Positions 19,049 to 40,735 are shown, counted from the first letter of the stretch. The stretch is DNA of 64,000 bases from Anaerolineae bacterium (GCA_034417895.1 DAOULT010000027.1:3738-67737); one strand, 5' to 3'. Notes: generated by a model not told the origin, from the sequence alone. Numbers and translations are program-made.

Positions 19049-19064
19049 CTCACTGCTCTCTTCT

Positions 19065-19568
19065 CTAATGATGCTTCACCGCCCAATCGTATGGAATACG
19101 ATTGTCGAACGGGTCCAGTCGGGTGCTGCGCGCTGGATCGTGGGTATGGGTGCAGCAATTGGCTACAATAGCATAAGGCTCGCTCATCCCCTTAAACCCA
19201 TTCCACACCTCGGGCGGGATGATGACCAGCGAATAATTATCCGGCCCCAGAAAGACTTCCATGAGCGTTCCCTTTGTGGGCGAACCTTCCCGCTCGTCGT
19301 AGAGCACCAGTTTGATGCGCCCGAAGATACAGGCATAGTTCAGCGTCATTTCGCGGTGTTTGTGCCAGCCTTTAATCACGCCTGGATAGATCGTCGAAAA
19401 GTATATCTCGCCAAATTGGATAAAATGGGGATCGGTGCACTTCAGCATGTGATAAATGGTTCCCCGCTCATCGGGAATCCGCCGCAAAGGGATGACTTTC
19501 ACTCCTTCTATGATCCCGTCTCCGCCCACGATTTTGACCCCACCCGGCAAACTCGCCTCACGTTTCAT
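19065..19568 (-). CDS. NDP-4-keto-6-deoxyhexose 3,5-epimerase (RmlC-like cupin)
   Basis: [24 protein letters not shown]. Confidence 0.85.
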
Positions 19569-22589: not shown

Positions 22590-23898
22590 CCAGATTTTCT
22601 GAAACCACTTCCAACTCCTCGTCAGACAGGAGCATCGCGTATTTGCGCAGAAAATCCCGCCCCACCCGAGAAGTTGCTTTATAAGAATAGTGGCCGGGTT
22701 TCATTAGAGACTTAAATCGCTCCTGTAATCGTTCATCCTCAGCGGTGTACGTCAAAGTCCCTTCTGTTCTCTCAAGCATCTCTAGAGCAAGGTCCCTGAT
22801 ATCATCTGGAGAATTGTCTATTACCTGTACACCAGCCTCGGTGTATAAAGGTGTGTAGCGGAAATTGCCTATTGGAGAATTGAGAACTTCCTTGAAACTC
22901 AGATAGCGCTGTTCCTTCAAGGACCACAGCAGCTTAGGTATGCCTATGTCACGAGGCCCGTAGGGGAGAACCACCGACATTGGGGCCTGGTTTGCTACAG
23001 CACAGGGAACGCCAAAGATATTCGCTACATTATATAGTCCAGAAGAGCTACCCAAGAGGAACCCGCAGCTTGCGCACAGAAAGATGTCCATCCAATCACT
23101 TCTAATGCCGAGGTGCGCATAGTCAATGACACGCTCCATCGGCGGGAGCGGTTTCATGGTTGGGTCTCCCAGCCGGATGCACCAACCGCTACGTTCGACG
23201 ATAGCTTGCATGGCAGGAATATAACTGTAAGGATCGGCGTTCCGATAATCATGGTTCCCTTCGTCTTCGCCTACCGTCTGGAAGTACCCCCTCTCTCTAC
23301 AATGAACGCAGACGTACCAGTCTTCGTCGGACAAACCGAGCTGACGCAGGACGTGTTGCCCCCGTTCACGATCGCGCTCAGACAGCGAAAGAAGTGGCGC
23401 CCGGTCACCCCATCTGCTCTGAATAGCAGGATAGCCGGCAGTCGTATCGACGATAGATGCGTAGTGTCCAACATCGAAGCGAGCGGCCCTGAAGTCACCA
23501 AGGGGGGCGAGCAATCGGCAGAGGAAAGGAGACGCGATGATCGTGAGGTACTGCTTCCAGTATTCCAACAAGGAGCGGTTTGCTACCCGGTTTCGATCTG
23601 CGAGCAACACCCCAATGTAGCGGGGATGCAATCCCAGGATACCCCCCTTTACATAGCAGTCTGGTTCCAGGGCGAGGTGTCCGATGTGCGCTATTTTCAC
23701 CCTCCACAGAAGTCGGACGCCCAGCACGTGCAGCGCGTATGCTAATACTATGCCTGCTGAGTAGGTATATATGACCCGAGCGACCCTCAATGCTCCTGTT
23801 CTCAAGCACCACACGATGCCCTTCTCCCGCACCTTGTCGGCCAGGAAGTGGGGTGACAGGTAGCGTTTCCAGCGTGAAATACTACCACTCGCGGTCAT
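22570..23898 (-). CDS. TIGR04372-family putative glycosyltransferase
   Basis: HIGHL, VCVHCRE, YRNAD, IRLGD, DIFLCASCGFLLGSSSGL motifs recognised from this family. Confidence 0.7.
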   Translation of the reverse strand: MTASGSISRWKRYLSPHFLADKVREKGIVWCLRTGALRVARVIYTYSAGIVLAYALHVLGVRLLWRVKIAHIGHLALEPDCYVKGGILGLHPRYIGVLLADRNRVANRSLLEYWKQYLTIIASPFLCRLLAPLGDFRAARFDVGHYASIVDTTAGYPAIQSRWGDRAPLLSLSERDRERGQHVLRQLGLSDEDWYVCVHCRERGYFQTVGEDEGNHDYRNADPYSYIPAMQAIVERSGWCIRLGDPTMKPLPPMERVIDYAHLGIRSDWMDIFLCASCGFLLGSSSGLYNVANIFGVPCAVANQAPMSVVLPYGPRDIGIPKLLWSLKEQRYLSFKEVLNSPIGNFRYTPLYTEAGVQVIDNSPDDIRDLALEMLERTEGTLTYTAEDERLQERFKSLMKPGHYSYKATSRVGRDFLRKYAMLLSDEELEVVSENLGGYHVY

Positions 23899-24974
23899 CG
23901 TTCGCCCCTGCTCTTATGCTGAGCCATGTCAATCAGTATCCGACCGACCTGGCCCTGCTCCAGGTAGTCCAATGCCTGGTTGATGTCGCTCAGACTGTGG
24001 GTGTGGGTGATCAGCCCGTCCAGCTTCAACCTTCCAGACAGGTATAAATCTACGTACAGCGGGATGTCACGATCTGGTTGGGTCTCTCCTCCCCAGGTGC
24101 CGACGATCCGTTTGCCCTTAATCAAGTCGAATGGATCCAGGCTGATGCGCCCTCCGTGCGGCAGGTTGCCGGCCAGCACACACAGCCCGCCGTTGTCGCG
24201 CCCGGCCTGGAACGCAGTTTCCATGGTCTCCTGCCGTCCAGCGGCCTCGATGGCATAGTCCACGCCTCGCCCTCCGGTGATTTCCAGGATGGTTGCCAGC
24301 GGGTCCTGGTGGCGCACGTTAATCAGGTGCGTGGCGCCGACCCGACGGGCCTGCTCAAGCTTATGGTCGAACACGTCAACAGCGATGATGGTCGTGGCGT
24401 GCACCAAGTCGGCGGCCAGCACCGCGCTCAGCCCGATTCCGCCCACACCGAAGACGGCCACACTGCTACCGGGTTGCACCCTGGCTGTGTTCAAGACGAT
24501 CCCGGCCCCGGTGGGGATGGCGCACCCCAACAGACTCGCCTCACGCAGCGGCATGGCTTCGGAAATAGGGGTCACCCGGTTCTCACACGTGATGGTCTGG
24601 CGCATAAAGGTGCTGATCGCCCCGGAGTTGATTGGGCCTTCCAGGCTCTGGTAGACTGTGGATGGCACATCGGCCCCGCTGCCTTTGATCCAGGAAAGCA
24701 CCACGCGGTCACCAGGTTTGACCTTCGTAACGTCTGCGCCCACTTCCAGCACCGTTCCTGAGCCTTCGTGCCCCAGGGCGTGAGGAAGAAAGCGGTCGGG
24801 TCCTCGCTTGCCGCGCACCTCCAGAAGCTGGCTGTGACACACGCTGCTGTAGGCCACCTCGACCAGAACCTGTCCGGGCTTCAGGTCAGGAATGGTCAAT
24901 GTTAAGAGACGTAGCGGTTGATTTAACTCAAACAAAACGGCTGCTTCGGTTTGCATAGAGATCGAAGTCAACAC
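23895..24974 (-). CDS. Zinc-dependent alcohol dehydrogenase (MDR family)
   Basis: VCHS, LGHEGSG, LGCAIPTG, VFGVGGIG. Confidence 0.9.
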   Translation of the reverse strand: MLTSISMQTEAAVLFELNQPLRLLTLTIPDLKPGQVLVEVAYSSVCHSQLLEVRGKRGPDRFLPHALGHEGSGTVLEVGADVTKVKPGDRVVLSWIKGSGADVPSTVYQSLEGPINSGAISTFMRQTITCENRVTPISEAMPLREASLLGCAIPTGAGIVLNTARVQPGSSVAVFGVGGIGLSAVLAADLVHATTIIAVDVFDHKLEQARRVGATHLINVRHQDPLATILEITGGRGVDYAIEAAGRQETMETAFQAGRDNGGLCVLAGNLPHGGRISLDPFDLIKGKRIVGTWGGETQPDRDIPLYVDLYLSGRLKLDGLITHTHSLSDINQALDYLEQGQVGRILIDMAQHKSRGER

Positions 24975-25508
24975 TTACCCTTCAACGTATGTATGGTATG
25001 CGAAGAGCGCTATAATAGAAAGGCTATCTACGATTTGCTGAGCAAACACCATATCGATGCAACGCGCCAATGGGATCCAGACTCGCCGCTCAGCGTTATC
25101 TTCTGCCCTTTCCTCAAGCTCTTCTGAGTAAAATACGTAGGTATAGTTTTTCCATATATCCAGGCTGGGATGGTAGCTAACCAGCGGCTTTAAGTTCAAA
25201 CCCCGAACTCCTGTCTCTTCCAGACACTCCCGAATAGCGGCAGCCTCAGGCGTTTCGCCCTCATCAACTCGGCCACCTGGAACCTCGTAAGAAAGTCCGT
25301 CGATAAGAAGTCGGTACTGCCTCGCTAACAACACTTCGCCATTGCGCACAGCCACCAGGGCCGCGCGTTGGCCGTGATCTGATACGTAGTATTCTTTGCT
25401 GAAGCCCTCAAATCGAGCAACGACTCTGTATAATTTCTGATTCCTATCCTGGTAGACAAGCTCTTGCGGCTCTATGCTCAACGGAAATAAAGTTGTTTCA
25501 CTCATCAA
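24975..25508 (-). CDS. NUDIX hydrolase
   Basis: Nudix box GGRVDEGETPEAAAIRECLEETG. Confidence 0.92.
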   Translation of the reverse strand: MMSETTLFPLSIEPQELVYQDRNQKLYRVVARFEGFSKEYYVSDHGQRAALVAVRNGEVLLARQYRLLIDGLSYEVPGGRVDEGETPEAAAIRECLEETGVRGLNLKPLVSYHPSLDIWKNYTYVFYSEELEERAEDNAERRVWIPLARCIDMVFAQQIVDSLSIIALFAYHTYVEG

Positions 25509-25529
25509 TCGTTCACTTTCTCCAACACG

Positions 25530-26207
25530 CTATTCAGCGATGAACCAATAATAATCACCTGTATAGCCGACTTCCGCGAAAAGCTTTTTCCAATCATCCA
25601 CATGCATGTAGGTCAGAGCAGTCAGGTTCCACTTCATCAGGCGTTCTTGCTCTTCCTCCGTCCGCCAGGCGTCCATCGTGACGAAGGCGTGCTTGCGGCT
25701 CACCCGCTGAATCTCTCGTAGGGCTTGCCTGCACTCTCCTAACGGCAGGTTGTGTACAGTATTGATGGAAATCACCAGGTCGAACGAGTTATCCTCATAC
25801 GGCAACTCCTTGGCGTTGCCCACCCGCAAGAAAGGCTTGACGGTCTCGATGGCGTGCTCGATAGCATATTCGGAGATGTCAAGGCCCGCGATGGTGAGAT
25901 TCGGCACGAGTTCCTTGAAATCGTGCAGCATGAATCCTTTGGCACAGCCCACGTCCAGTACGCTGGCGTCCTCGGCCAGCTTGTAGTGGTCCCGGAAGCG
26001 CTTGACCGTCGCCTGCCAGAAGCGAGGATGGTAGGAGTAACCGCCGTAGCCGTATAGACGCTCGCCATCGAAATACTCTTTGCCAAACTGGCGGGCGACT
26101 TTGCGGTGCTCTTCGGTGATCAGCTTACCCCGCTCCTCGATCGGGCGCTTCGAGCGCGGATACAGATCCAACAAATTGATTTCTTCCCCCATGTTTCTCC
26201 CTTCCAA
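25530..26207 (-). CDS. Class I SAM-dependent methyltransferase
   Basis: VLDVGCAKGF, GLDISEY, FDLVISINTVHNL; true start may be ATG 26192. Confidence 0.85.
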   Translation of the reverse strand: MEGRNMGEEINLLDLYPRSKRPIEERGKLITEEHRKVARQFGKEYFDGERLYGYGGYSYHPRFWQATVKRFRDHYKLAEDASVLDVGCAKGFMLHDFKELVPNLTIAGLDISEYAIEHAIETVKPFLRVGNAKELPYEDNSFDLVISINTVHNLPLGECRQALREIQRVSRKHAFVTMDAWRTEEEQERLMKWNLTALTYMHVDDWKKLFAEVGYTGDYYWFIAE

Positions 26208-26277
26208 AATGATCGATTTCTATCAAGTGCGCCCCCGCTTCAAACTGCTCGGTTCACCATGCGGACAGATTTATGGA

Positions 26278-28059
26278 TTACTCTAGTGATGCTTTCATTG
26301 GTTTGACAATCATATTCTCTAGAAATTCTCTCCTGTCTAACAAAGGTTCCGCATCCTCTATAGGTCTTCCAAATTTTGTCTGTGGAATAACTCTATGCTC
26401 TGGACTAATCTCAACATTGCCAAAGACCGGTCCATGGCTATTCAATACTTCTCTTATTCGCGCGTGTACTTCTCCATTGTTAGTAATGGTTACTGTTTTA
26501 TAACCATAAGCATCTGCAACTTTCACAAAGTCAGGAAATGCCAGGCCGCCTTCTATTGAGGATGCCAGATATCTGGAGCCCAGCCATTGGTCTTGTGTTT
26601 GCCGGATCATGTTATACCCATGGTTGTTGATCAGGAAAATCTTGATCGGTAACTGATGTCTCATAACGGTAGCCAGTTCCTGGATGTTCATTTGTAGGCT
26701 GCCATCTCCGGTCACACAGATAATCGGTTTTCTATCAAGCGCAAAACAGGCCCCAATACTGGCGGGCAACGCGTACCCCATAGCCGTGTTGTTGAAATCA
26801 TGGAATAGCCTCTGGTTCGGTTTGACCTCAAAGGCTTGCATCATCCAGGCCAGGGCACAACCAGTATCAACAAAGATCACGCTTCCTTCGGCTGATTCTT
26901 TCGACAAAGCCTTCACAAATACATACGGGTTGACTTCCTCCTGCTCCCAATACTCTGGCAGACAAATCGGATATCTCTTCTTCCACGCCGAAATCCGTTC
27001 AGTCCACTCCGAGATGTCCTGCTTTGAAAACCCAGCGACTCTTTGGTTAATCACCTGAAGAAAGTCCTTTGCATTAGCGCAAATGGGTAGAACACCTTCC
27101 ATTCCAAGCATTCCAAACTTGTTCAATTCATTAGGATCTATATCAACGATGATTTTCTTGGCTTCTCTGGCGAAAGTAGTTCTAGGGCTACCAGCCGCAC
27201 GCGTATCTAATCGAGCACCAATGGCCAGAATCAGATCGGCATTCTGAACGGTAAAGTTACCATAGCGGGTGCCGTGAGTTCCGAATGCACCCACTACAAG
27301 ATGATGGCTAGAAGGCAGTATATCCCTCATCGCCCAGGTCGGCGCGACTGGAAAACCCAACTTTTCAATGAATTCCCGCACCTCCCCATCCGCTTTGGCT
27401 AAGCGAATTCCCCAACCTAAGATAATGACTGGCCTTTTCGCCTTTTCAAGTATCTCAATACACCTGTCTACTTGATCCACCAACTCACTCAGGTCTCTGG
27501 TTTCCGGTTCGGGGGTGAACGACTCTAATTCACCAGGACTGATCTGTCCCCTTTGAAGGTCGTCAGGGATATCTAACAACACGGGTCCAGGTCTACCGGA
27601 CCTGGCCAAATAACATGCCTTTTCCAACTCGTACCGGATTCTCGCGGGATCATCTACCCGCACGGCGTACTTGGTAATTGGCTTGTATATATCAACCACG
27701 TCCGTTTCTTGAAAGCCCATTTGTCTAACGCCGGTATCTCTCTTCAGCCTGAAGGTTGTAACTTGCCCTGTAATGTAGATAACAGGAACAGAGTCATAAT
27801 AGGCGCAGCAAACGCCCGTCACCATATTGGTGGCCCCAGGTCCGCTTGTTGAAATCGCAGCCCCCAAATTCCCAGTCGCCCTTGAATAGGCATCAGCCGC
27901 CATGGCGCCAGCCTGCTCATGCTGCGGGCAAACGTAGTCAATCTCCGGATGTTTGGCTATCGAATCAACTAGATGCACGGAGGCTCCCCCAGATATGGCA
28001 AACACATGCCGGATACCTTGGCGGGCCAAAAAATCGGCAACGTAATCAGAAAGTTTCAC
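26278..28059 (-). CDS. Thiamine-diphosphate enzyme, acetolactate synthase-like (possible YerE-type carboligase)
   Basis: HEQAGAMAAD, TSGPG, GFQE, GDGSLQMN...NN ThDP-binding motif. Confidence 0.9.
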   Translation of the reverse strand: MKLSDYVADFLARQGIRHVFAISGGASVHLVDSIAKHPEIDYVCPQHEQAGAMAADAYSRATGNLGAAISTSGPGATNMVTGVCCAYYDSVPVIYITGQVTTFRLKRDTGVRQMGFQETDVVDIYKPITKYAVRVDDPARIRYELEKACYLARSGRPGPVLLDIPDDLQRGQISPGELESFTPEPETRDLSELVDQVDRCIEILEKAKRPVIILGWGIRLAKADGEVREFIEKLGFPVAPTWAMRDILPSSHHLVVGAFGTHGTRYGNFTVQNADLILAIGARLDTRAAGSPRTTFAREAKKIIVDIDPNELNKFGMLGMEGVLPICANAKDFLQVINQRVAGFSKQDISEWTERISAWKKRYPICLPEYWEQEEVNPYVFVKALSKESAEGSVIFVDTGCALAWMMQAFEVKPNQRLFHDFNNTAMGYALPASIGACFALDRKPIICVTGDGSLQMNIQELATVMRHQLPIKIFLINNHGYNMIRQTQDQWLGSRYLASSIEGGLAFPDFVKVADAYGYKTVTITNNGEVHARIREVLNSHGPVFGNVEISPEHRVIPQTKFGRPIEDAEPLLDRREFLENMIVKPMKASLE

Positions 28060-28074
28060 ACGATTCTCCTAGAC

Positions 28075-28413
28075 TTATCCTTCCCAGGGTATCTCACTCT
28101 TGCAGGTCACAAAAAGTGTGCCTTCACGATAGCTCGTGGGCATATCATCAACATCACGCACTGGCTGCCAATTAGTTTTTTGAGAGAAAAATAGATTTAG
28201 CGAGTCAATAGCACCCATGGCATGGTACGGGAATACCAGCTCTCCAAATGGCTTAAATTCCTTTACTTGTGGTTCATGTTCATAAAACAAGTCCTCAACT
28301 TCTCTGCGAGCTACTTGTTTCAGTAGAGCGTACACTTTTGACCCAGGGGCGTGTTGGCTACTCAGAGACGGGAGTGCCAGAAAAAGACTTTCAAAGATAG
28401 AAGCAGAACTCAT
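28075..28413 (-). pseudogene. FkbM-type methyltransferase with in-frame internal deletion (N- and C-termini fused)
   Basis: 112 aa. N-part ends PFGELVFPYHAMGAIDSLNLF and C-part FSQKTNW...DMPTSYREGTLF...PW; both resemble, from recall, the termini of roughly 300-aa FkbM proteins in this kind of cassette. No DIGAN/KMD core is present. Confidence 0.6.
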
Positions 28414-28423
28414 GTCCCCTCCA

Positions 28424-29260
28424 TTAGTTCCGGTTCTTCACCAACCAGTCATTGCCATATCGTCTTAGTTTGTACATGTTGGGTTCCTCGGCCAGTTTTC
28501 TATCCAATTCCTCGGTTCCCCACATGTCAAACACCACGCTGAAGTTGCGTCCACCTATCAACTCACGTGGAGCATCGAGCGCCCAGTCGCAACAGTCCAA
28601 GACTTGATCCATCGAAGTGCATTCGTCGCCAGCCAGTTTATCCATTGTACGCTGATAATTATCTCCGGCGCGCTCACCTGCCCGTAACGTTGATTCATGT
28701 ATCTTTGTCTTTACCCAACCAGGACCGATCATCACAAAGCGAGTATCGGGTATTTCGGCGTCCAACAGCTCACACATTTTGATCAGGGCTATCTTTGAGA
28801 CGACATATGCTGAGTAGTTGACAGGAGCGTTGTTCGTTCCTCCACCAGCAAAGAGCAGGACACATGGCCCAAGAGGAAGGTTGACGCGTCTTGATGGTAG
28901 CAATTCATGAATGATACGCATCTGGCTGGTAAAGTTCACCCTCACAGATTCTTCCCATTCGTCAAAGCTGCATTCGGCAAAGGCCCCGACTGGATCCTGC
29001 GTGCCAGGACACATTACCAGAACATCCCATTGTGGACAGAATGTACGTAGATCGGAGCGAGCATTACCTATCGAGGCAGAATCTGCAAGGTCACAGTGGA
29101 TAAGCTTAACTCCAGCGCGAAGCAATTCATCGGTTGCTTGCGATTTAGTGCGATATGTTCCAAATATGTTCCAACCACGGGCCAACCACCTTCGACTCAT
29201 TGCGGTGCCAACATCACTGGAGGCGGAGATAATGATGGCTGAGCGGCCCTCTTTGACCAT
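28424..29260 (-). CDS. Short-chain dehydrogenase/reductase (classical SDR)
   Basis: IISASSDVG (degenerate TGxxxGxG), YSAYVVSK, GPGWVKT. Confidence 0.85.
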   Translation of the reverse strand: MVKEGRSAIIISASSDVGTAMSRRWLARGWNIFGTYRTKSQATDELLRAGVKLIHCDLADSASIGNARSDLRTFCPQWDVLVMCPGTQDPVGAFAECSFDEWEESVRVNFTSQMRIIHELLPSRRVNLPLGPCVLLFAGGGTNNAPVNYSAYVVSKIALIKMCELLDAEIPDTRFVMIGPGWVKTKIHESTLRAGERAGDNYQRTMDKLAGDECTSMDQVLDCCDWALDAPRELIGGRNFSVVFDMWGTEELDRKLAEEPNMYKLRRYGNDWLVKNRN

Positions 29261-29338
29261 GGGGGATATCCCCTTTCTTTCAAGAACCGTGTTCTTCCAT
29301 AAGCTGTGCAGACCTTCCGGTTCGCAACGACCGCAGTT

Positions 29339-30337: not shown

Positions 30338-30403
30338 AACTTTTTCCTCCTTCTGTCTTATGCCGCAAATACTGTCTTGGGCAAACGATGGGCATGGCGC
30401 TCA

Positions 30404-30793
30404 TTACCAGCTCTCGACCGCGAGCCCATTCACGTATGCGAAATGCTCGTCGTCCGTGGCCAATGTCCAACCATGTTCAAGGCATTGTGCAGCAATCCAG
30501 ATGTCATTGTCAGGGATCGGGCATCCCTTGCGCTTCAAGGCACAACGCGTTCTTGAGTAGATTGCGGCGGTTTCTCGCCCCATCGGCACCACAGTGCAAG
30601 CGTCCACGAACTGCAAGTAGCGGGTGAGGTTTTCCAGGGGACGCGCGGAATTCTCTGCTCCAAACAATAGTTCACCCACAACGATTAGCGGGAGCACGAC
30701 TGTCGGTAGAGCGGTGACTTTCGCCACCACGGTGGGGTCACCGTTGAGATGTCGAATCGCCATTGTACTATCCAGCGCGGTTTCACCAGGCAT
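30404..30793 (-). CDS. vapC: VapC PIN-domain toxin
   Basis: LDS, VGEL, IPDNDIWIAA, TDDEHF acidic tetrad. Start at ATG 30793 overlaps the antitoxin stop. Confidence 0.9.
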   Translation of the reverse strand: MPGETALDSTMAIRHLNGDPTVVAKVTALPTVVLPLIVVGELLFGAENSARPLENLTRYLQFVDACTVVPMGRETAAIYSRTRCALKRKGCPIPDNDIWIAAQCLEHGWTLATDDEHFAYVNGLAVESW

Positions 30794-31013
30794 CGGGGTC
30801 AATTCTTGCGAACTCCTCTTCGATGATACGCCGCAACTCCGCCGCTTCGTCGTCGCTGAGAATGCCGGCAAATCGCAAGAGTGGGTGCGGCGTGGTCTCT
30901 TCGCGCTGAATCGTGATCTTCACTTTGCAGTGCTCTGCGACACCCTCCAACGCTTTGAGTGGGCGCAGGACGCCGTTTTCGTAAATGGCTTCAACTGTTT
31001 GAGGTTGTGGCAT
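30783..31013 (-). CDS. AF2212/DUF104-family antitoxin
   Basis: 76 aa with EAIYENGVLRPL signature, directly upstream of and overlapping vapC. Confidence 0.85.
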   Translation of the reverse strand: MPQPQTVEAIYENGVLRPLKALEGVAEHCKVKITIQREETTPHPLLRFAGILSDDEAAELRRIIEEEFARIDPDAW

Positions 31014-31063
31014 AGCCTCCTCCGTATTAGCCGTTGGTTAGCCCCTCGGGCACAGCCCGCGTA

Positions 31064-32125
31064 TCAGAAGGGACCCTTAAAGCTTATATCTGGGACATCG
31101 AGCGGCACGGATGTCGTCACCTGCGATATAAGGTCATCCTTGCCGAGTCCCAGCATTCCCCTGGCGGTCGCTACGATGTGAACTGCTCGCGGATAATAGT
31201 GGTTGGCCAAAGCCGGGGTGGTCGGGGTGGGGCAATCAGGCAGGGCGATGCGTCGCGGTGGGCTTTTCATATCGGCCAGTGCTTCCTCCGCAACCCGTGC
31301 CACAACCTCAGCGCCGAAGCTCCCTGTCTTCCAGGCGCTATCGGCCACGATGAGTCGTCCTGTCTTGCGCACAGATTCCAGGATGAGAGACTCGTCCAAC
31401 GGCCTGAGGGTGCGAATGTCAATAACCTCTGCTCCAATGCCCTCCACGGCCAGCATCTCAGCCGCGCGGAGCGCTTCCAGAGTCATGTACGAGGTGGCGG
31501 CGAGCGTTACGTCGTGCCCCTCCCTGACCACTCTGGCCTGTCCTAGCGGCACGCGGTACACTCCCTCTGGTACGCTCCCCGTGATATTGTAAAGCCAGCG
31601 GTGCTCGATGAAAATCACGGGGTTGTTGTCCTCGACGCTGGCGATGAGCAGCCCCTTGGCGTCGTATGGCGTGGCGGGCATGACCACCTTGAGACCTGGA
31701 ACATGGGCGAACCAGGCTTGCAGGCTTTGGGAGTGTTGCGGACCCTGCCCCCAGCCCCGGCCAATGATCACCCGAATCACGAGGGGAACGCGCATTTGCC
31801 CGCCGAACATGTAATGCCACTTGGCAGCTTGATTGACGATTTGCTCCAGGGCCAACAGGGCAAAGTCAATGCGTTGATGCGTCATAATCGGTCTCATCCC
31901 CACCAGGGCTGATCCGATGGCTACTCCAGTCATGCCGTTCTCGGAGGTCGGCATGTCCATGACCCGGCTACTCCCGTATTTTTGTTGCAGACCCAGAGTG
32001 CTGCCAAAAATGCCCTTTGGATCAGGCACGCCCAGCCCCATAATATAAACAGCCGGGTCCTGGGCCATACACAGGTCAATGGCCTCATTGATAGCCTGGA
32101 AGAACTTCAACTCTCTATCCGTCAC
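31064..32125 (-). CDS. 2-oxoacid dehydrogenase E1 beta / transketolase C-terminal-like subunit
   Basis: DMPTSEN, GWGQGPQHSQ, PVIFIEHRWLY, IDIRTLRPLD. Confidence 0.9.
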   Translation of the reverse strand: MTDRELKFFQAINEAIDLCMAQDPAVYIMGLGVPDPKGIFGSTLGLQQKYGSSRVMDMPTSENGMTGVAIGSALVGMRPIMTHQRIDFALLALEQIVNQAAKWHYMFGGQMRVPLVIRVIIGRGWGQGPQHSQSLQAWFAHVPGLKVVMPATPYDAKGLLIASVEDNNPVIFIEHRWLYNITGSVPEGVYRVPLGQARVVREGHDVTLAATSYMTLEALRAAEMLAVEGIGAEVIDIRTLRPLDESLILESVRKTGRLIVADSAWKTGSFGAEVVARVAEEALADMKSPPRRIALPDCPTPTTPALANHYYPRAVHIVATARGMLGLGKDDLISQVTTSVPLDVPDISFKGPF

Positions 32126-32146
32126 TTGAGATTGCCTCCCTGGGAG

Positions 32147-33115
32147 CTACGGAGCATAGATGTTTTCCATAAGAAGCCGCTCTTCTGGAAAGGGGCTTTC
32201 CTTAGCAAACACAATCGCGTCCTCTATTTCGGCTTCCAATTCGCTCACCATACGGTCAATGTCCTGGTTGCAAAGGATGCCCTCCCTCAACAGACGCTCT
32301 TTCAACCTTTCAAGCGGGCAGCGCCGTTTCCACTCTTGAAACTCGCTTTCGGTTCGGTAGCCCAGATCGTTGTCATAGTAGGGGCCACAGTGTTCCCGCC
32401 AGCGATAGGTCTTAAACTCCAGGAGCGTGGGGCCGCCACCCTGTCTGGCCTTGCAAACAGCCCGTTCCGCCAATTGGTAGACCTCGATGACGTCATTGCC
32501 ATCGCCCTGATAACTCTCCATCCCATGTCCCTCAGCCAGCTCAAAAATCTCTCTGCTCTCAGGTTGGCGGACGGAGAGCGGGGAATACACGGAATACATA
32601 TTGTTCTCACAAACAAATACGACAGGCAATCTTTTAAGCGTGGCGAAGTTAATGCTCTCGTGAAACACGCCCTCCTCGGTTGCCCCATCGCCAAAAAAGA
32701 TCGCCGTCACACGTTGCTCGCCGCGCATGACTGAGCCGAATGCAGTCCCCACTGCGATCGGGATCGTGCTGCCCACGATCGGCGTGGCCCCCAGAAACCC
32801 CACGGAGAGATCCACCAAATGCATAGAGCCTCCTTTGCCCCTGGAGCATCCGGTCGCCTTCCCATATAGCTCCGCCACCATCGCCTTGAGATCCCCACCC
32901 TTAGCCAGATAATGCCCGTGCGAGCGGTGACCACTGAGCACGTAGTCATCGTCAGACAGGTTAGCACACACCCCGGCGGCAACCGCTTCCTGCCCGATGC
33001 AGAAATGGACAGGACATCTCATCTCCTGCTCTGGATAGAATTCGGCGATCTTCTCCTCGATCACGCGGATCCTGAGCATCTCATAGTACAGCCGTTTCAA
33101 GGCCTCAGCTTCCAT
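32147..33115 (-). CDS. 2-oxoacid dehydrogenase E1 alpha-like ThDP subunit
   Basis: HFCIGQEA, HRSHGH, GGSMH, FFGDGATEEG...ENN, TYRWREH. Confidence 0.9.
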   Translation of the reverse strand: MEAEALKRLYYEMLRIRVIEEKIAEFYPEQEMRCPVHFCIGQEAVAAGVCANLSDDDYVLSGHRSHGHYLAKGGDLKAMVAELYGKATGCSRGKGGSMHLVDLSVGFLGATPIVGSTIPIAVGTAFGSVMRGEQRVTAIFFGDGATEEGVFHESINFATLKRLPVVFVCENNMYSVYSPLSVRQPESREIFELAEGHGMESYQGDGNDVIEVYQLAERAVCKARQGGGPTLLEFKTYRWREHCGPYYDNDLGYRTESEFQEWKRRCPLERLKERLLREGILCNQDIDRMVSELEAEIEDAIVFAKESPFPEERLLMENIYAP

Positions 33116-33126
33116 AAGCTCCCCGT

Positions 33127-34134
33127 TTATTTTAGTTGCAGATGCTTCATAGTCTTGACGTTGTAATAGCGGATGTCCGTCATCGAGTCAGAAATCTTCC
33201 CCGCCTGGAAGGCGTCCGCCAGGTCGCGCACTGCGTCCTGGATGGTGTGCTGAGGCACAAAGCCCAACTCGCGCTTGATCTTGTCCGATGAAATGTGGTA
33301 GGAACGGTGATCATCCGTCGGGGTGGTGACGATCTCTATGTCTGTCCCCACCACGCCCCGCACCATCTCGGCAATCTCGATGACTCTGTGGTTCTGGTAG
33401 CCGGCGTTAAAAATCTTGCCGTCAATGGCTTCATCCGGCCATTCCAGCGTCCTGACGTACAAGTCGGTCATGTCTTCGATGTGGATATTGGGGCGCTTCT
33501 GCTGGCCGCCAAAAACGGCGATCCTTTTGTTGTTGATCGCGTGGTTGGTCAAGATGTTTACCGTCAGGTCCAGCCGCAGACGCGGTGAGTAGCCGCACAC
33601 CGTAGCCGGGCGCAAGATCAAGGTCACAAATCCAGGCTGCCGTTCCCTGAGCAACACTTCCTCGCACATAGCCTTGTACCTGGAGTAGTCCGTCAGCGGC
33701 TCCAGGGCCAGATCCTCGGTGACGTTCTCCTCTTCCTTGATGCCATACACGCTGGAAGTCGAGGCGTAGATGAAGCGGTGAACGTCGCTGTCCTTTGACA
33801 CCTCAACCAAATCAATGAACGCATCATAGTTGATGGACCGACCCAAGGCCGGGTCCAACTCAAAGCTGGGATCGTTAGAGATGCACGCCAGATGGATCAC
33901 CGCCTCACACCCAGGCATGACCCTCTCCAGCAACGCCCGGTCGCGAACATCGCCCTTGATTTGCTCCAGAGCAGGGTTATCCTTGACCGCGTCCAGCACG
34001 TGCTCCCCGTAGATATACAGATCAAGCACCTTCACGCCGTAGCCCTTGTCCAGCAGCTTAGGCACCAGCACGGCTCCAACGTAGCCTGCTCCGCCTGTAA
34101 CCAGAACTTGTCGTATCGGTTTCATTTCGGTCAT
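33127..34134 (-). CDS. NAD-dependent epimerase/dehydratase
   Basis: VTGGAGYVG, HLACISND, YSRYK. Start moved to ATG 34134 (ATGA overlap with the gmhA stop). Confidence 0.88.
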   Translation of the reverse strand: MTEMKPIRQVLVTGGAGYVGAVLVPKLLDKGYGVKVLDLYIYGEHVLDAVKDNPALEQIKGDVRDRALLERVMPGCEAVIHLACISNDPSFELDPALGRSINYDAFIDLVEVSKDSDVHRFIYASTSSVYGIKEEENVTEDLALEPLTDYSRYKAMCEEVLLRERQPGFVTLILRPATVCGYSPRLRLDLTVNILTNHAINNKRIAVFGGQQKRPNIHIEDMTDLYVRTLEWPDEAIDGKIFNAGYQNHRVIEIAEMVRGVVGTDIEIVTTPTDDHRSYHISSDKIKRELGFVPQHTIQDAVRDLADAFQAGKISDSMTDIRYYNVKTMKHLQLK

Positions 34135-34757
34135 GCGAGTTTCTCCTCCTCCGACCGTGACATTATAGCACAATCTGTCAAAAAGTGCGACAGCACAGAG
34201 TGGGCCGCTTCCACATAGCCGTAGACTTGCGAGGAAATGTAGAAATTCAGGTGGCCCAGGCGGCGCAATGGATTGTCGGCGCGAAAGCCAGAGAGCGTGA
34301 TAATCTGGCATCCCCGCGCCACGGCGGCCCGGACGGCACGCAGGATATTCTCCGACCGTCCCGAACTGCTGATAGCAATCAGCAGGTCGCCAGAGTCGGC
34401 CCACAATTCCAGCGGTCGTTCAAAGACACACCCATAGCCATGGTCGTTGGAAAGGGCTGTCAACAGCGGCGTCCCGTAAAAGACCAACGCTCGCACTCCC
34501 ACCCCTTTGCACAGATCGTTCTGCATGTGACTGGCGATGGCGGCGCTGCCACCGTTGCCTATCAACATGACCTTGCCTGAAGCGGCTCCGACCGATAAGA
34601 TCATCTCCGCCGCTTTGCCTGCCCCTTGGTCCAAAGATAGAGCTACGCCCTGCCCATCGGTTACTTGCAGGCCCAGCAGCAGCTCAGACAGTTTGTGAAA
34701 ATAGGCTGTAGCACTTTGGTCAATCACCTCAGTGTCCTCTCTCCCTGTCGAGATCAT
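34131..34757 (-). CDS. gmhA: SIS-domain phosphosugar isomerase (GmhA-like)
   Basis: IGNGGSAAIASH, NDHGY, AISSSGRSENI, YGYVEAAH. Confidence 0.8.
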   Translation of the reverse strand: MISTGREDTEVIDQSATAYFHKLSELLLGLQVTDGQGVALSLDQGAGKAAEMILSVGAASGKVMLIGNGGSAAIASHMQNDLCKGVGVRALVFYGTPLLTALSNDHGYGCVFERPLELWADSGDLLIAISSSGRSENILRAVRAAVARGCQIITLSGFRADNPLRRLGHLNFYISSQVYGYVEAAHSVLSHFLTDCAIMSRSEEEKLA

Positions 34758-34764
34758 TCCGCAT

Positions 34765-36297
34765 CTACTTCAACAAAGACTCAATATGCTTAAACAACGG
34801 CACACGCTCGATCGGCTTCCGATGGCCGACCGTGGCCACCGCCTGCGCTCCAACGGCGTTGCCGATGAAACCCACGACTTCCATAGGCGCCTGCTGGGCC
34901 GTGCACAGCGCAGTTATCGATAATACGGCATCGCCTGCGCCAACCCGGTCCACAATACGATTGGTAAATGCCGGGATCTCAGAGAAACCCTCTTCTTTGC
35001 CGTAGCAAAGACAGCCTTCCTGGCCTCGCGTGATCAGAACGCGCTCACAAGAAAGTTTTTCCGCCACTTCCAGGATAATATCCCTGGCATCTCTGAGCCG
35101 GCTTCGGACTTCCAGTCTGATTTCTCTTTCAGAAACGCATGTATAGTCCATACAGCGATATTTAGAAACCGTGTTGTAGCCCTGGTTGGCGGCGTTAGTC
35201 TGGGTGTTTACTACCAGGAAACGAGCTTGATCACACAAGATATCAATTGTTTCAGAGTTGAGCATACCGTGTCCATAATCGGCTACGATCACCACGTCGT
35301 ATGCGGGCAGTACCGCTCTCAACCTGGCACACAACGCCTGAGAATTAGCGGCGTTGTCTTCCTCGTCATTCATCACGTACACTTCAAATAGCTTCTGAAA
35401 CGGGTACATCTCGACGAATCTCCGCTTGACAATCGTCGGAGCATTCCCTGTATAGAGAAACAGTGTGTCAATCCTGGGGTCTAATTTTTCACGGATAAAG
35501 TCCTCCTGTGAATCCTGCGCCCCCAGGAAGGTGAGCACCCCCACCTGATCGCAAAAGGCGGCGACGTTATTGGCAACAGCTAAGATGCCCCCCGCAAACT
35601 TTTCGCTGGAAACGTATCTGGCGGCCAGGATTGGCTCTTTGCCGGACTTGCCAATGGTTTCGCAATACTGGTACTCATCAATAATCGTCTCACCTACGAC
35701 CAGCACCTTCAGCGAGCGGGCGCTTTCGAGATAGCGCAGAACATCGTCCGCCCGGTATCTGAGGGCAAAATCGGCCAGATAGTCGCTGACCTCCTGGGGA
35801 AAGACCGGCAAGTAGCGGTTAATCAGGTGCGAGGAGCTAAAGGTGATATCGTCTGTGAAGACAAGCTGACCACCTACGGATTTGACCGCTGTTTCCTCAT
35901 CAACGATCTTGCCTGTGAGATCTCTTTGCCGGTCTCTATAGTCAGCGCCTTTAGCATAGATATCGGGCTTGAGGAGTTTAATCGTTTCTACAGCCGTCGG
36001 CCAGTTGTTTATAGCCACGTAGTCAACACAATCCAGGGCAGCAATGGCCTCTGCGCGCAAATCCTGGCCGAACACAGGACGGTGAGGCCCCTTGTTCACG
36101 TACCTGTCGGGCGTTACAGTCACCGCCAGAATGTCTCCTAGCTCTCTGGCCCGCTCAAAATGGCGAATGTGTCCGATGTGCAGCAGGTCGAAAACGCCGT
36201 GGCAGTGGATGATCTTCTGGTCATCGTTCTGAGCGCGAAGTGAGGCCAGCACATTAGCCAGCTCTTCAATTGTCTTGATTTTGTCGTTCTGCCGCAT
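34765..36297 (-). CDS. Bifunctional nucleotidyltransferase (N) / PfkB sugar kinase (C), HldE/RfaE-like
   Basis: HGVFDLLHIGH, YAKGADY; C-terminal ADYGHG, ITRG, DRVGAGD. Confidence 0.88.
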   Translation of the reverse strand: MRQNDKIKTIEELANVLASLRAQNDDQKIIHCHGVFDLLHIGHIRHFERARELGDILAVTVTPDRYVNKGPHRPVFGQDLRAEAIAALDCVDYVAINNWPTAVETIKLLKPDIYAKGADYRDRQRDLTGKIVDEETAVKSVGGQLVFTDDITFSSSHLINRYLPVFPQEVSDYLADFALRYRADDVLRYLESARSLKVLVVGETIIDEYQYCETIGKSGKEPILAARYVSSEKFAGGILAVANNVAAFCDQVGVLTFLGAQDSQEDFIREKLDPRIDTLFLYTGNAPTIVKRRFVEMYPFQKLFEVYVMNDEEDNAANSQALCARLRAVLPAYDVVIVADYGHGMLNSETIDILCDQARFLVVNTQTNAANQGYNTVSKYRCMDYTCVSEREIRLEVRSRLRDARDIILEVAEKLSCERVLITRGQEGCLCYGKEEGFSEIPAFTNRIVDRVGAGDAVLSITALCTAQQAPMEVVGFIGNAVGAQAVATVGHRKPIERVPLFKHIESLLK

Positions 36298-36330
36298 ACC
36301 CCTTCCCCTCCTGCATTACCTGAGCTGGGT

Positions 36331-37338
36331 TCAGTGCGATGGACTACCCAGGTACTTGAACCAGTCCCGGGTAGCATCGGCTATGGATCTCTCGTCCCAT
36401 ATGGGTGCCTCGCGCCACTGGTCGATATTCTGAAGCATGATTTGCACGCCTTCCTCAAAAGTAACTTTTGGCTGCCAGTCTAGCATCTGCGATATCTTCC
36501 GAGTGTCCGCAAAGGTGCAGTCGGGTTCGCCAGGCCGCTTCGGAATATGCACGGTCTCTCCACCGAGCAGTCTCACCAAATGGTTAACGCTATACGTATT
36601 GCCCGACCCAACATTCAAGACCTCGCCCTCAATTTCAGATTCCGCGGCCCGCACAAAGGCATCAACCACATCGGCGACGAAAGTAAAGTCCCTTGTCTGT
36701 GTCCCATCTCCCACTACCGTAAAAGGCTTTCCGGCCAGCTTCTGGGCCAGAAAGACGCCAAAGACAGCCCCATAGGCCCCGCTCGTTCTGGTCCGCGGAC
36801 CGTAGACATTGAAGAGTCGGAGTGAAACACACGGCAGCTTGTATACTTTGTTCCAGTGCAGCACGTACTGCTCGCCGAGATACTTGGTAAGCGCATAGGG
36901 GTACATGGGCCTGATGAGCGCCGTTTCTGGGGTGGGAAACTCATCCGGAAGCCCGTAACAAGAGGACGAAGCAGCATAAATGAACCGCCTGACTCCGGCA
37001 GTCCGGGCGGCCTCGAGCACCGCGCTGGTACCATCTACGTTCGCTTTGTGGTATATGAGAGGCTGTTGAATGGAGGGCACGATGTCGGCCAGCGCCGCCA
37101 GATGGAAGACCCAGTCAACGCTCTCAAAGAACGGCTTGATCTCTGAATAACTCGAAACATCCAGGCGATGAATCGAGAGCCGCGGGTTGTCCTTGACTTG
37201 ATCCAGGTTCTCCATTCTGCCGGTGGAGAAATTGTCAAGCACCACCACCGTATGGCCGTCCGCAAGCAGGCGCTCCACCAGGTGACTGCCGATGAAGCCA
37301 AGCCCGCCGGTAATGATAACTTGCTGCGCATTAATCAT
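36331..37338 (-). CDS. NAD-dependent epimerase/dehydratase
   Basis: ITGGLGFIG, HLAALAD, AASSSCYG, PYALTK, GDGTQTRDF. Confidence 0.9.
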   Translation of the reverse strand: MINAQQVIITGGLGFIGSHLVERLLADGHTVVVLDNFSTGRMENLDQVKDNPRLSIHRLDVSSYSEIKPFFESVDWVFHLAALADIVPSIQQPLIYHKANVDGTSAVLEAARTAGVRRFIYAASSSCYGLPDEFPTPETALIRPMYPYALTKYLGEQYVLHWNKVYKLPCVSLRLFNVYGPRTRTSGAYGAVFGVFLAQKLAGKPFTVVGDGTQTRDFTFVADVVDAFVRAAESEIEGEVLNVGSGNTYSVNHLVRLLGGETVHIPKRPGEPDCTFADTRKISQMLDWQPKVTFEEGVQIMLQNIDQWREAPIWDERSIADATRDWFKYLGSPSH

Positions 37339-38414: not shown

Positions 38415-38445
38415 AACTAACCATTCTGAGTCCCATTCCCATCTC

Positions 38446-40727: not shown

Positions 40728-40735
40728 CTATACTC

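Follow-up and report, generated by a model that had tools for sequence, protein, structure and literature searches.

The window analysed here is a 64-kb stretch of DNA from an Anaerolineae bacterium. On its minus strand, between positions 23895 and 37338, it carries one tightly packed operon with intergenic gaps of 0-78 nt. Transcription runs from an epimerase-type SDR (SDR1) through an HldE-like gene, a SIS-domain gene, a second SDR (SDR2), the E1 alpha and E1 beta genes, a VapBC pair, a third SDR (SDR3), a classical short-chain dehydrogenase (adh_short), the remnant of an FkbM-type methyltransferase, an ALS-like gene, an intact methyltransferase and a NUDIX gene to a Zn-dependent alcohol dehydrogenase (Zn-ADH). 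Every gene that the original prediction had listed for this range was recovered at its position. A C-methyl-deoxyhexose pathway adjoins the cassette in the window.

The operon opens with SDR1, which is followed by a supply module of two genes. SDR1 (36331-37338, 335 aa) is a GalE/WbpP-like SDR of the NDP-sugar 4-epimerase type (Pfam Epimerase, 209 bits), and its best PDB matches are UDP-glucose 4-epimerases (7ys8, 203 bits). In many relatives, with 56-82% identity (67% in Azospirillum oryzae), it adjoins an HldE gene with reversed domains. This reversed order is also seen in the bifunctional HldE-like enzyme of the window (34765-36297, 510 aa), with the nucleotidyltransferase at aa 22-161 and the PfkB kinase at aa 191-492 (Pfam matches CTP_transf_like, aa 33-122, and PfkB, aa 197-496); relatives with reversed domains occur in at least 585 GTDB species genomes. 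Its best PDB matches are 4e84, a D-beta-D-heptose 7-phosphate kinase, and 5x9q, a putative cytidylyltransferase, which we take to be HldA and HldC of Burkholderia. The third gene encodes a GmhA-like sugar-phosphate isomerase (34131-34757, 208 aa, Pfam SIS_2). The top 13 of its 15 PDB matches are phosphoheptose isomerases (best 76 bits), the last two being DiaA.

The enzymes of the supply module all fall well short of the heptose equivalog cut-offs. The SIS protein reaches 70 bits with the NCBIfam model gmhA (cut-off 209), and the HldE-like enzyme reaches 162 bits with the HldE model (cut-off 521) and 102 and 124 bits with rfaE_dom_II and rfaE_dom_I, both below cut-off. A GmhB-like phosphatase was not found in the window. 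These values, together with a transaldolase in one related locus and a CDP-glycerol-type transferase in another, would fit a module activating a different sugar phosphate (a hexose, an octulose as in lincosamide biosynthesis or a polyol phosphate), on which the ThDP chemistry would then act. We consider this quite improbable, since the closest solved relatives of both HldE halves and of the SIS protein are heptose enzymes and the best structural relative of SDR2, described below, is presumably heptose-specific. Furthermore, the closest relative of the cassette, locus L086, possesses a full four-enzyme heptose-type set, in which a separate kinase, a GmhB-like HAD phosphatase and an NTP_transferase replace the fused HldE-like enzyme. 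Judged by these relatives, NDP-heptose is much more likely to be the substrate than a hexose; the original prediction had allowed for either. Because of the closest solved relatives and the interchangeable supply modules in other loci, we suggest that the GmhA-like isomerase and the HldE-like kinase/nucleotidyltransferase would convert sedoheptulose-7-phosphate to NDP-heptose.

The NDP-sugar oxidoreductase SDR2 (33127-34134) has its true start at the ATG at 34134, preceded by the ribosome-binding site GGAGGAGGAG. It is present in 30 of 44 loci anchored on the ALS-like gene, and in the window as well as in loci L046, L166 and L176 it lies directly upstream of the position occupied by a ThDP enzyme, referred to here as the ThDP slot. 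Its best PDB match is 6VO6/6VO8 (143 bits). The former is presumably Cj1427 of Campylobacter jejuni, a GDP-heptose C4-dehydrogenase. On account of this relative, the activity expected of SDR2 is oxidation of the NDP-heptose, probably at C4, which would yield a keto-sugar. In forming GDP-4-keto-heptose, Cj1427 reduces alpha-ketoglutarate to L-2-hydroxyglutarate (PMC10680097). The S. magneticus cassette contains a gene for an L-2-hydroxyglutarate oxidase (lhgO), of which six other loci have weaker homologues.

SDR2 is followed by the genes for an E1 alpha-type ThDP subunit (32147-33115, 322 aa, Pfam E1_dh 235 bits), with the GDG...NN ThDP motif at aa 142, and an E1 beta-type subunit (31064-32125, 353 aa, Pfam Transket_pyr and Transketolase_C). 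E1 alpha shares 45-57% identity with the cassette E1 alpha of Azospirillum, Paramagnetospirillum and Solidesulfovibrio, compared to 41-43% with annotated pdhA/acoA. We surveyed 45 loci with a reversed HldE gene, each of at least 15 kb. A split transketolase was present in 24 and an E1 alpha/beta pair in 6 of the 45, usually directly after SDR2. Thus, ThDP enzyme classes interchange at one position of this cassette family. A split transketolase or E1 pair following SDR2 points to ThDP-dependent addition of carbon onto the oxidised NDP-heptose. As originally predicted, the E1 pair stands without E2 and E3 and the ALS-like enzyme without a regulatory subunit: neither E2, E3 nor the ALS small subunit was found in Pfam scans of all large ORFs of the 64 kb, and E2, E3, IlvN and IlvC were not found near the ThDP genes of the window or of about 43 related loci. 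Given the position in the ThDP slot and the absence of E2/E3, the pair may function by itself as an alpha-KADH2-type carboligase, which would decarboxylate pyruvate and add the two-carbon unit to the carbonyl made by SDR2.

E1 pairs without E2 do not always act on sugars, because a pair 50% identical to that of the window resides in a polyketide-type cluster and not in a sugar cluster. This pair, the 42% identity of E1 alpha to annotated acoA genes and the fact that ALS-type and acetoin-type E1 enzymes perform such chemistry would also suit ThDP enzymes that spare the sugar and instead produce an acyloin or diol (of the acetolactate, acetoin or butanediol type) or an acyl group, attached later as a non-carbohydrate substituent. 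It is a very doubtful explanation, as the cassette is not accompanied by any conserved acyltransferase, CoA ligase or carrier protein, and the ThDP gene, which can be exchanged for a transketolase, comes directly after the sugar oxidoreductase in almost every layout.

The second ThDP enzyme resembles the large subunit of ALS (26278-28059, 593 aa), comprises all three TPP_enzyme domains and contains the GDG...NN motif. The original prediction had compared it to YerE, and its best PDB match is indeed the YerE-like JanthE (8RPH, 368 bits, 37% identity); the best entries that we take to be genuine AHAS score 303 bits. In a neighbour-joining tree the enzyme falls, with JanthE, into a clade with 100% support apart from IlvB/G/I. 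The entry 5AHK, presumably PpYerE, is placed on the Ilv side of this tree. Relatives inside glycan cassettes are 66-84% identical across phyla, true Ilv enzymes only 33-35%. A small subunit gene follows every one of the true ilvB/G/I genes, whereas the ALS-like gene has none adjacent to it. Judged by its sequence, the enzyme is YerE/JanthE-like and not a biosynthetic AHAS. It would form the second ThDP-dependent C-C bond, with either the new methyl ketone or a different carbonyl as acceptor.

An ordinary IlvB and PdhAB, present by chance in a glycan locus, might be assumed from the closest NCBIfam models, which are those of ALS and PDH E1, and from E1 beta just exceeding a subfamily cut-off (NF006667, 326 bits, cut-off 321). 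We give this practically no credence. Both ThDP systems remain below the equivalog cut-offs (E1 alpha 323 bits with TIGR03182, cut-off 394; ALS-like enzyme 439.5 bits with TIGR00118, cut-off 538), and these scores, the missing partners and the separate ALS-like clade contradict a grouping with the housekeeping enzymes. Both ThDP systems are non-housekeeping.

Between E1 beta and SDR3 the operon is interrupted by a gene pair absent from the original list, encoding an AF2212-like VapB antitoxin (30783-31013, 44.7 bits) and a PIN-domain VapC toxin (30404-30793, PIN 53.9 bits, VapC NF047863 68 bits). No PIN gene was found in any of 40 related loci, and in L086 SDR3 directly follows E1 beta. The VapBC pair (30404-31013) is an insertion with no part in the pathway. 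Also missed earlier was an ORF of 112 aa (28075-28413) without Pfam match, whose alignment with an intact 288-aa FkbM-type methyltransferase (Methyltransf_21) in L086 covers residues 1-75 and 251-288 of the latter. An in-frame deletion has removed about 175 aa and with them the SAM-binding core; 23 related loci have an intact homologue. Since this ORF is a deletion remnant, only one of the methyltransferases predicted for the range is intact, namely that of 225 aa.

The truncated methyltransferase, the toxin-antitoxin pair inside the operon and the missing GmhB-like and separate nucleotidyltransferase genes of L086 raise the question whether the cassette is decaying in this genome and the full product is no longer made. 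This would be compatible with our reading for the family, but appears rather unlikely to us: the remaining reading frames are all intact and tightly spaced, the fused HldE-like gene can stand in for the missing nucleotidyltransferase, and the FkbM deletion is in frame and therefore without polar effect.

Among the remaining genes, SDR3 (29339-30337, 332 aa) is an RmlB-like extended SDR found in 20 of the 44 loci, with 192 bits to TIGR01181 (cut-off 365) and dTDP-glucose 4,6-dehydratases as best PDB matches (6bi4, 151 bits). Its motif ISSPEVYG lacks the Asp of the TDE signature of RmlB, so its status as a dehydratase is uncertain. The classical short-chain dehydrogenase (28424-29260, 278 aa, Pfam adh_short, YxxxK motif at aa 152) is proposed to be the ketoreductase for the new acyl branch, a YerF-type role. 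The class I SAM methyltransferase of 225 aa (25530-26207, Pfam Methyltransf_31/25/11) accompanies the ALS-like gene more consistently than any other gene and occurs in split-transketolase versions of the cassette, too. The NUDIX hydrolase (24975-25508, 177 aa, Pfam NUDIX 68 bits) is accessory; L086 is the only ALS-anchored locus in which it is conserved, and NUDIX genes are also present in the cassettes of A. oryzae and S. magneticus. Short-chain dehydrogenase and Zn-ADH (23895-24974, 359 aa, Pfam ADH_zinc_N and ADH_N) would reduce the ketones formed in this way, and O-methylation would fall to the 225-aa methyltransferase. A TIGR04372-family glycosyltransferase (22570-23898, minus strand, 442 aa, 229 bits, cut-off 45) overlaps the stop of Zn-ADH with its start by 4 nt. 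The gene with which the cassette had been predicted to end is thus real, but lies just outside the range given for it. Only weak homologues (24-31% identity) were detected in some related loci. It is a candidate transferase for the product, which either this enzyme or neighbouring glycosyltransferases may install.

The Zn-ADH bears on the direction in which carbon is added. It is closest to primary-alcohol/aldehyde dehydrogenase families, and in many relatives its gene is the next one downstream after the split transketolase. Transketolases and E1-type enzymes usually accept aldehydes. Zn-ADH or an SDR might therefore oxidise the exocyclic C7 (or C6) of the NDP-heptose, and the ThDP enzymes would then lengthen the chain linearly to an unbranched sugar of the nonose or undecose type. 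We regard this course as possible, yet unlikely. The minimal unit in Paramagnetospirillum (reversed HldE, SDR2, E1 alpha, E1 beta and a GT2 gene) has SDR2 and the E1 pair without a Zn-ADH, about one third of the ALS-anchored loci lack it as well, and the characterised sugar-modifying members of these ThDP classes all attack a ring ketone.

Co-inheritance was counted in 43 ALS-anchored loci plus the window. Of these 44, 42 contained the ALS-like gene, 36 the methyltransferase, 30 E1 beta, 29 E1 alpha, 30 adh_short and 28 Zn-ADH; E1 beta and the ALS-like gene occurred together in 30. The E1 pair, the ALS-like enzyme, the SDRs, the 225-aa methyltransferase and Zn-ADH travel together across many phyla. 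Dozens of unrelated contigs contain the same set, so the association is far beyond chance. The cassette genes are co-inherited and the cassette is laterally mobile between bacteria; the synteny search proposed with the original prediction thus revealed a conserved, laterally spread unit.

Branching of keto-sugars is known or has been proposed for three ThDP classes, namely YerE-like enzymes, alpha-KADH2 pairs and split transketolases (PMC12247030; PMC9306805; PMC10338323). The YerE-like carboligases of LPS branched-sugar pathways (YpYerE, ErwE, MMAR_2332, JanthE), members of the decarboxylase superfamily, share with the ALS-like enzyme the three-domain fold, the GDG...NN motif, the lack of a regulatory subunit and the location in a surface-glycan locus beside NDP-sugar oxidoreductases and a ketoreductase. 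Their acceptor is CDP-3,6-dideoxy-4-keto-glucose, whereas that of the window is likely heptose-derived, and the cassette enzyme forms its own clade and in almost every case has a second ThDP system as its partner. The alpha-KADH2 carboligases (aldgamycin, kibdelomycin KbDH-a/b and the proposed AviB1/B2 and EvdU5/EvdS3) likewise are adjacent E1 alpha/beta pairs without E2/E3 beside an SDR forming an NDP-keto-sugar, with pyruvate as presumed donor in both cases, a likeness drawn from descriptions of these enzymes. They serve actinomycete secondary metabolism and act on deoxyhexose or pentose ketones, in contrast to the surface polysaccharide locus, the environmental bacteria and the heptose supply in which the E1 pair is found here. 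Split-gene transketolases are proposed to branch the sugars of miharamycin and amipurimycin, all published cases being from Streptomyces; most cassette relatives carry one at the exact position of the E1 pair, the window itself having the pair instead.

In C. jejuni, too, an NDP-heptose is oxidised to a 4-keto intermediate before further modification (Cj1427, epimerases, reductases), as proposed for the window. Its GDP-heptose pathways only epimerise, dehydrate and reduce, have no ThDP enzymes and use a GHMP kinase and a guanylyltransferase in place of the reversed HldE. The parallel drawn in the original prediction to the O-antigen region of Coxiella burnetii (CBU_0674-0678, CBU_0686/0692/0693) holds at the level of published descriptions, with which we compared it: CBU_0678, required for full-length LPS, has the same reversed HldE-like domain order, and in both regions this gene lies beside a phosphoheptose-isomerase-like gene and two SDRs. 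E1-type 'pyruvate dehydrogenase' genes belong to the same LPS region, but an ALS-like gene is not reported there in these descriptions. Both regions were laterally acquired.

On balance, we lean towards a cassette that builds a carbon-extended heptose for a surface polysaccharide exported by an ABC transporter, in which the NDP-heptose would be oxidised and then extended by the two ThDP enzymes. As product we predict an O-methylated heptose derivative of C9-C11 that is branched or possibly chain-extended, where the original prediction had proposed a C8-C10 or branched sugar. Such an extension of a heptose by two ThDP enzymes would constitute a pathway without earlier description.

The cassette (23895-37338, minus strand) belongs to a single, long minus-strand glycan locus, which runs from about 47.5 kb down to 0.5 kb of the window and contains a Wzm/Wzt ABC exporter, many glycosyltransferases, Wzy_C-type and Wzz-type genes and several sugar-nucleotide pathways. 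Its operon is tightly packed, with intergenic gaps of 0 to 78 nt. The genes are transcribed in the order GalE-like SDR (SDR1, 36331-37338), HldE-like fusion with reversed domains (34765-36297), GmhA-like SIS protein, a second SDR (SDR2, 33127-34134, with the ATG at 34134 as true start), E1 alpha, E1 beta, RmlB-like SDR (SDR3, 29339-30337), classical SDR, acetolactate synthase (ALS)-like enzyme (26278-28059, 593 aa), 225-aa methyltransferase, NUDIX hydrolase and Zn-ADH, immediately followed by a TIGR04372 glycosyltransferase. Each gene of the original prediction was confirmed by Pfam and NCBIfam for this region, while a toxin-antitoxin pair and the nature of a 112-aa ORF had been overlooked.

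The toxin-antitoxin pair (VapBC, type II, 30404-31013, minus strand) is located between E1 beta and the RmlB-like SDR. The gene of the AF2212-like VapB antitoxin (30783-31013) overlaps that of the PIN-type VapC toxin, which starts at either 30793 or 30871 and ends at 30404. A search of 40 related loci for the PIN toxin gene gave no match. The 112-aa ORF (28075-28413, minus strand), upstream of the ALS-like gene, corresponds to residues 1-75 and 251-288 of a 288-aa FkbM-type methyltransferase and is thus the remnant of an in-frame internal deletion, lacking the SAM-binding core. The idea that it might be a novel ALS small subunit was thereby ruled out. The closest relative of the cassette, locus L086, is syntenic with 79-90% identity for most genes and about 64-66% for kinase and SIS protein, contains no VapBC pair and has the methyltransferase intact. 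Compared to L086, the window has gained VapBC, lost the FkbM core in frame and is missing a GmhB-like gene, with the rest intact. The product of the operon may lack one methyl group, or its synthesis may rely on a phosphatase encoded elsewhere.

NDP-heptose is the best-supported candidate for the sugar made by the front end of the cassette. The 13 best of 15 PDB matches of the SIS protein are phosphoheptose isomerases, and the two halves of the fusion, an N-terminal nucleotidyltransferase and a C-terminal PfkB kinase, matched the cytidylyltransferase 5x9q and the heptose 7-phosphate kinase 4e84, which we take to be HldC and HldA of Burkholderia. Both proteins stay far below the thresholds of the respective family models (70 bits at a cut-off of 209 for GmhA; 162 bits at a cut-off of 521 for HldE, with reversed domain order). 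No GmhB-type phosphatase was found in the window; a GmhB-like HAD protein is present in L086 and three other loci. In place of the fusion, L086 encodes a separate kinase, a GmhB-like HAD phosphatase and an NTP_transferase, which together with the SIS isomerase make up the classical four-enzyme NDP-heptose set. Different supply modules therefore appear to feed the same downstream genes.

The best solved relatives of SDR2 are 6VO6/6VO8 (143 bits, roughly one-third identical residues), presumably Cj1427 of C. jejuni. Cj1427 converts GDP-D-glycero-D-manno-heptose to a 4-keto sugar, after which its bound NADH is reoxidised by alpha-ketoglutarate with formation of L-2-hydroxyglutarate (PMC10680097). 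In Solidesulfovibrio magneticus RS-1, plasmid pDMC1, the gene lhgO, annotated as L-2-hydroxyglutarate oxidase, is found beside the cassette (L174, 21380-22582). Weaker homologues with 31-44% identity occur in six loci (L109, L046, L056, L137, L159, L097), and none in the window. This would fit the recycling of L-2-hydroxyglutarate from a Cj1427-type dehydrogenase, a suggestive but weak indication. The signature of dTDP-glucose 4,6-dehydratases is TDEVYG; SDR3 exhibits the motif ISSPEVYG with a proline at the position of the aspartate, so that 4,6-dehydration cannot be assigned to it with confidence. Instead of a dehydratase, it may represent an SDR of the oxidase/epimerase or decarboxylase type.

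The original prediction would be at odds with a grouping of the two thiamine-diphosphate (ThDP) systems among housekeeping enzymes, as the only copies in the genome. By every test available, on sequence as well as on gene context, neither of them is a housekeeping enzyme. The ALS-like enzyme possesses TPP_enzyme_N, M and C domains and a GDG...NN ThDP motif at aa 451, but scored 439.5 bits against the NCBIfam equivalog TIGR00118, below the cut-off of 538.35, and shares 33-35% identity with genuine Ilv enzymes. A neighbour-joining tree (558 columns, 200 bootstraps) placed the cassette enzymes in a clade with 100% support, separated by a 100% split from IlvB/G/I, which form a 100% clade of their own. 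JanthE, the YerE-like enzyme of PDB 8RPH, and a paralogue from locus L002 fall on the side of the cassette enzymes. The entry 5AHK, which we take to be PpYerE, is found on the Ilv side of this tree, which was calculated without YpYerE, ErwE and MMAR_2332. JanthE was also the best PDB match of the ALS-like enzyme with 368 bits, compared to 303 bits for the best of the entries presumed to be genuine AHAS. It is a characterised YerE-like carboligase accepting ketones. Furthermore, neither an ACT/ALS small subunit nor IlvC was detected in the Pfam-scanned large ORFs of the 64-kb window, and neither ALS small subunit nor IlvC among the gene clusters conserved around 43 related loci, whereas all four ilvB/G/I genes used for comparison are followed by ilvN, ilvM or an ACT protein. 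The deltaproteobacterial locus L002 encodes three ALS-like paralogues (595, 606 and at least 877 aa; 14331-16151 and 19425-21788) together with a radical SAM enzyme, a DJ-1 protein and a transaldolase, which suggests still more elaborate carbon-adding variants.

The genes for E1 alpha and E1 beta are adjacent, embedded among NDP-sugar tailoring genes, and the ThDP motif of the alpha subunit is intact. That this pair is distinct from housekeeping PdhAB is borne out by several observations. E1 alpha reached 323 bits at an equivalog cut-off of 393.85 and E1 beta 308.5 bits at one of 454; E1 beta just exceeds the threshold of a broad subfamily model (326 versus 321). Scanning the large ORFs of the 64-kb window with Pfam revealed no lipoyl, 2-oxoacid_dh (E2) or E3 genes, and E2/E3 were likewise missing from the conserved gene clusters of the 43 related loci. 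E1 alpha is 45-57% identical to cassette-borne E1 alpha of Azospirillum, Paramagnetospirillum and Solidesulfovibrio, compared to 41-43% for annotated pdhA/acoA. A PDB search with E1 alpha returned housekeeping E1 structures only and was uninformative. An E1 pair of Streptomyces griseofuscus (50% identity), considered as support for sugar branching, was dropped, as it is located in a PKS/NRPS-type and not in a deoxysugar cluster.

The expectation that these genes travel together as a cassette agrees with the synteny data, the same gene set being repeated around ALS-like relatives across phyla. Relatives of the ALS-like enzyme with 66-84% identity were found in Nitrospirota, Elusimicrobia, Deltaproteobacteria and CPR Nomurabacteria. 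ORFs of 43 ALS-anchored loci and the window were clustered, and the ALS-like family was present in 42 of these 44 loci, the 225-aa methyltransferase in 36, SDR2, E1 beta and the short-chain dehydrogenase in 30 each, E1 alpha in 29, Zn-ADH in 28, the intact FkbM methyltransferase in 23 and the RmlB-like SDR in 20; many of the contigs are truncated, so that these counts are lower bounds. NUDIX was detected in one of 40 related loci. On the basis of these comparisons we regard the cassette as a conserved, mobile unit. Relatives of the reversed HldE form a much larger family than the ALS-containing set and occur in at least 585 GTDB species genomes of many phyla, including Coxiellaceae, Legionellaceae and Waddlia.

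The position after SDR2 is occupied by different ThDP enzymes. Among 45 reversed-HldE loci of at least 15 kb, 24 encode a split transketolase and 6 the E1 pair, while 15 have neither within range; an ALS-like gene was found in none of the 45. Of the ALS-anchored loci, 32 span at least 15 kb; 23 of these combine the E1 pair with the ALS-like gene, 7 have the ALS-like gene as the only one of the three within range, one has transketolase and ALS-like genes and one all three. A Nitrospirales genome exhibits the Pfam-confirmed order SIS, SDR1, reversed HldE, SDR2, TK-N, TK-C and Zn-ADH, with SDR3 and a methyltransferase further on, and E1 alpha and beta of the window hold the exact place of its TK-N and TK-C, directly after SDR2. 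The split transketolase directly follows the SDR2 homologue in locus L046 (12640-14396; TK-N about 267 aa, TK-C about 318 aa) and in 23 other GTDB loci (e.g. L006, L008, L056, L080). No other version of the cassette is as common, and it appears to be undescribed outside Streptomyces. A minimal unit is present in Paramagnetospirillum marisnigri, comprising reversed HldE, SDR2 (59%), E1 alpha (55%), E1 beta (50%) and a GT2. The order SDR1, reversed HldE, SIS, SDR2, E1 alpha, E1 beta is likewise found on plasmid NZ_CP054615.1 of the cultured alphaproteobacterium Azospirillum oryzae KACC 14407 (L166, 19236-23695), where two DegT aminotransferases, a radical SAM enzyme and a NUDIX hydrolase beyond E1 beta hint at an aminated version of the product. 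RefSeq labels on cassette genes in the cultured carriers are generic only.

According to a 2025 review, exactly three classes of ThDP enzymes are known or proposed to add carbon to keto-sugars, namely YerE-like enzymes, alpha-KADH2 (E1 alpha/beta) and split transketolases (PMC12247030). That all three classes replace each other or occur together at one position, following a single sugar oxidoreductase, is the strongest argument for an action of the ThDP enzymes on the product of SDR2. In the proposed pathway NDP-heptose would be made first and then oxidised by SDR2 to a keto-sugar, probably at C4. According to the main rival explanation, which we regard as unlikely, the oxidised carbon is an exocyclic one, from which the chain is extended linearly. 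In the preferred pathway the E1 pair would place a pyruvate-derived C2 unit on the carbonyl, and the YerE/JanthE-like enzyme would form a second C-C bond; its acceptor may be the new methyl ketone, akin to the 2-keto-acid acceptors of ALS itself. Subsequently the new ketones would be reduced by the short-chain dehydrogenase and Zn-ADH, and the 225-aa methyltransferase would methylate the sugar, with the FkbM enzyme providing a second methyl group in intact versions. The product would be a C9-C11 sugar. In its general form, as ThDP-dependent carbon addition on an NDP-heptose-derived carbonyl, we consider this pathway slightly better than an even chance, and our confidence in any specific product structure is far lower.

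Directly downstream of the cassette a separate, self-contained pathway is encoded (17369-22589, minus strand). Besides a glucose-1-phosphate cytidylyltransferase (361 bits, over the cut-off) and an SDR resembling CDP-glucose 4,6-dehydratase, it comprises a reductase, an RmlC-like epimerase and two methyltransferases, a sugar C-methyltransferase of the TylC3 type and an O-methyltransferase of the CmcI type. From this gene set a virenose-like CDP-6-deoxy-C-methyl-hexose is predicted. On the other side (37392-41638), Wzm (40736-41638, minus strand) is accompanied by a long Wzt of 448 aa, whose ABC domain covers only aa 63-194, indicating a C-terminal extension. Two methyltransferase-like genes follow (38446-39381 and 37392-38414, minus strand), which may encode chain-terminating or sugar methylases; homologues of the 340-aa one are located beside the cassette in about five related loci (e.g. 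L004, L096, L133, L149). Beyond the glycan locus and unrelated to the cassette, the region 48013-60156 encodes a PBP whose N-terminal domain is of the MecA_N type (48013-50295, minus strand), GtrA, a second Wzy_C protein, a protein resembling GT87/Alg6 and, at 55534-60156, a histidine kinase of 1540 aa with 7TM, PAS and GAF domains.

ThDP-dependent branching of keto-sugars is familiar from actinomycete antibiotics and from a small number of LPS sugars of enterobacteria and mycobacteria. Within this chemistry, the use of a heptose as substrate, the presence of two ThDP systems and a distribution wider than expected would be new. We found no description of a heptose cassette with these ThDP enzymes in the literature, although some of the loci may be listed by Krug et al. 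2024, reportedly an in-silico survey of YerE-like and alpha-KADH2 clusters. Our literature search also yielded nothing relevant on transketolase together with phosphoheptose isomerase in O-antigen clusters. In photosynthetic Bradyrhizobium, the bicyclic C10 sugar bradyrhizose, considered as a possible lead, requires an 11-gene operon including a 'dTDP-glucose 4,6-dehydratase', the one gene of the operon named in the publication.

CBU_0678 of Coxiella burnetii has been described as having an 'unconventional, reversed domain arrangement', is essential for phase I LPS and has genes for a phosphoheptose isomerase and two SDRs as neighbours; according to a 2026 preprint its role is still unclear. 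Like Coxiella CBU_0674-0678, matched here by published description only, the window shows the reversed HldE order with neighbouring isomerase and SDRs, and the same pairing of a C-methyl-deoxyhexose-type pathway with a heptose-type cassette. A locus of a Coxiellaceae MAG (L048) shares 61% identity for SDR1, 50% for the reversed HldE, 42% for the SIS protein and 60% for SDR2. C. burnetii itself is absent among the best 80 GTDB HldE matches listed, all of which are closer MAGs, and also among the matches listed for the window HldE in a separate search and for its Azospirillum homologue. It is conceivable, and we put this forward tentatively, that reversed HldE, a 6VO6-like SDR2 and an interchangeable ThDP enzyme (split transketolase, or the E1 pair with or without a YerE-like enzyme) constitute a pan-bacterial, unrecognised pathway family for C-branched or chain-extended C9-C11 heptoses in surface glycans, with the double-ThDP version described here as the most elaborate, and that the same chemistry explains why Coxiella needs CBU_0678 for its phase I LPS and has orphan E1 genes there.

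If true, the same chemistry would act on heptoses in hundreds of species, reaching Chloroflexota, Nitrospirota, Planctomycetota, Verrucomicrobiota, Desulfobacterota, CPR bacteria and Alphaproteobacteria, and all three ThDP enzyme classes would take turns at a single conserved position. The cell envelopes of environmental bacteria would be predicted to contain a set of higher-carbon sugars that are as yet undescribed, and new carboligases for tertiary alcohol synthesis would become available. For the Coxiella burnetii genes required for full-length LPS, it would provide a concrete hypothesis, testable in the Azospirillum and Paramagnetospirillum carriers.
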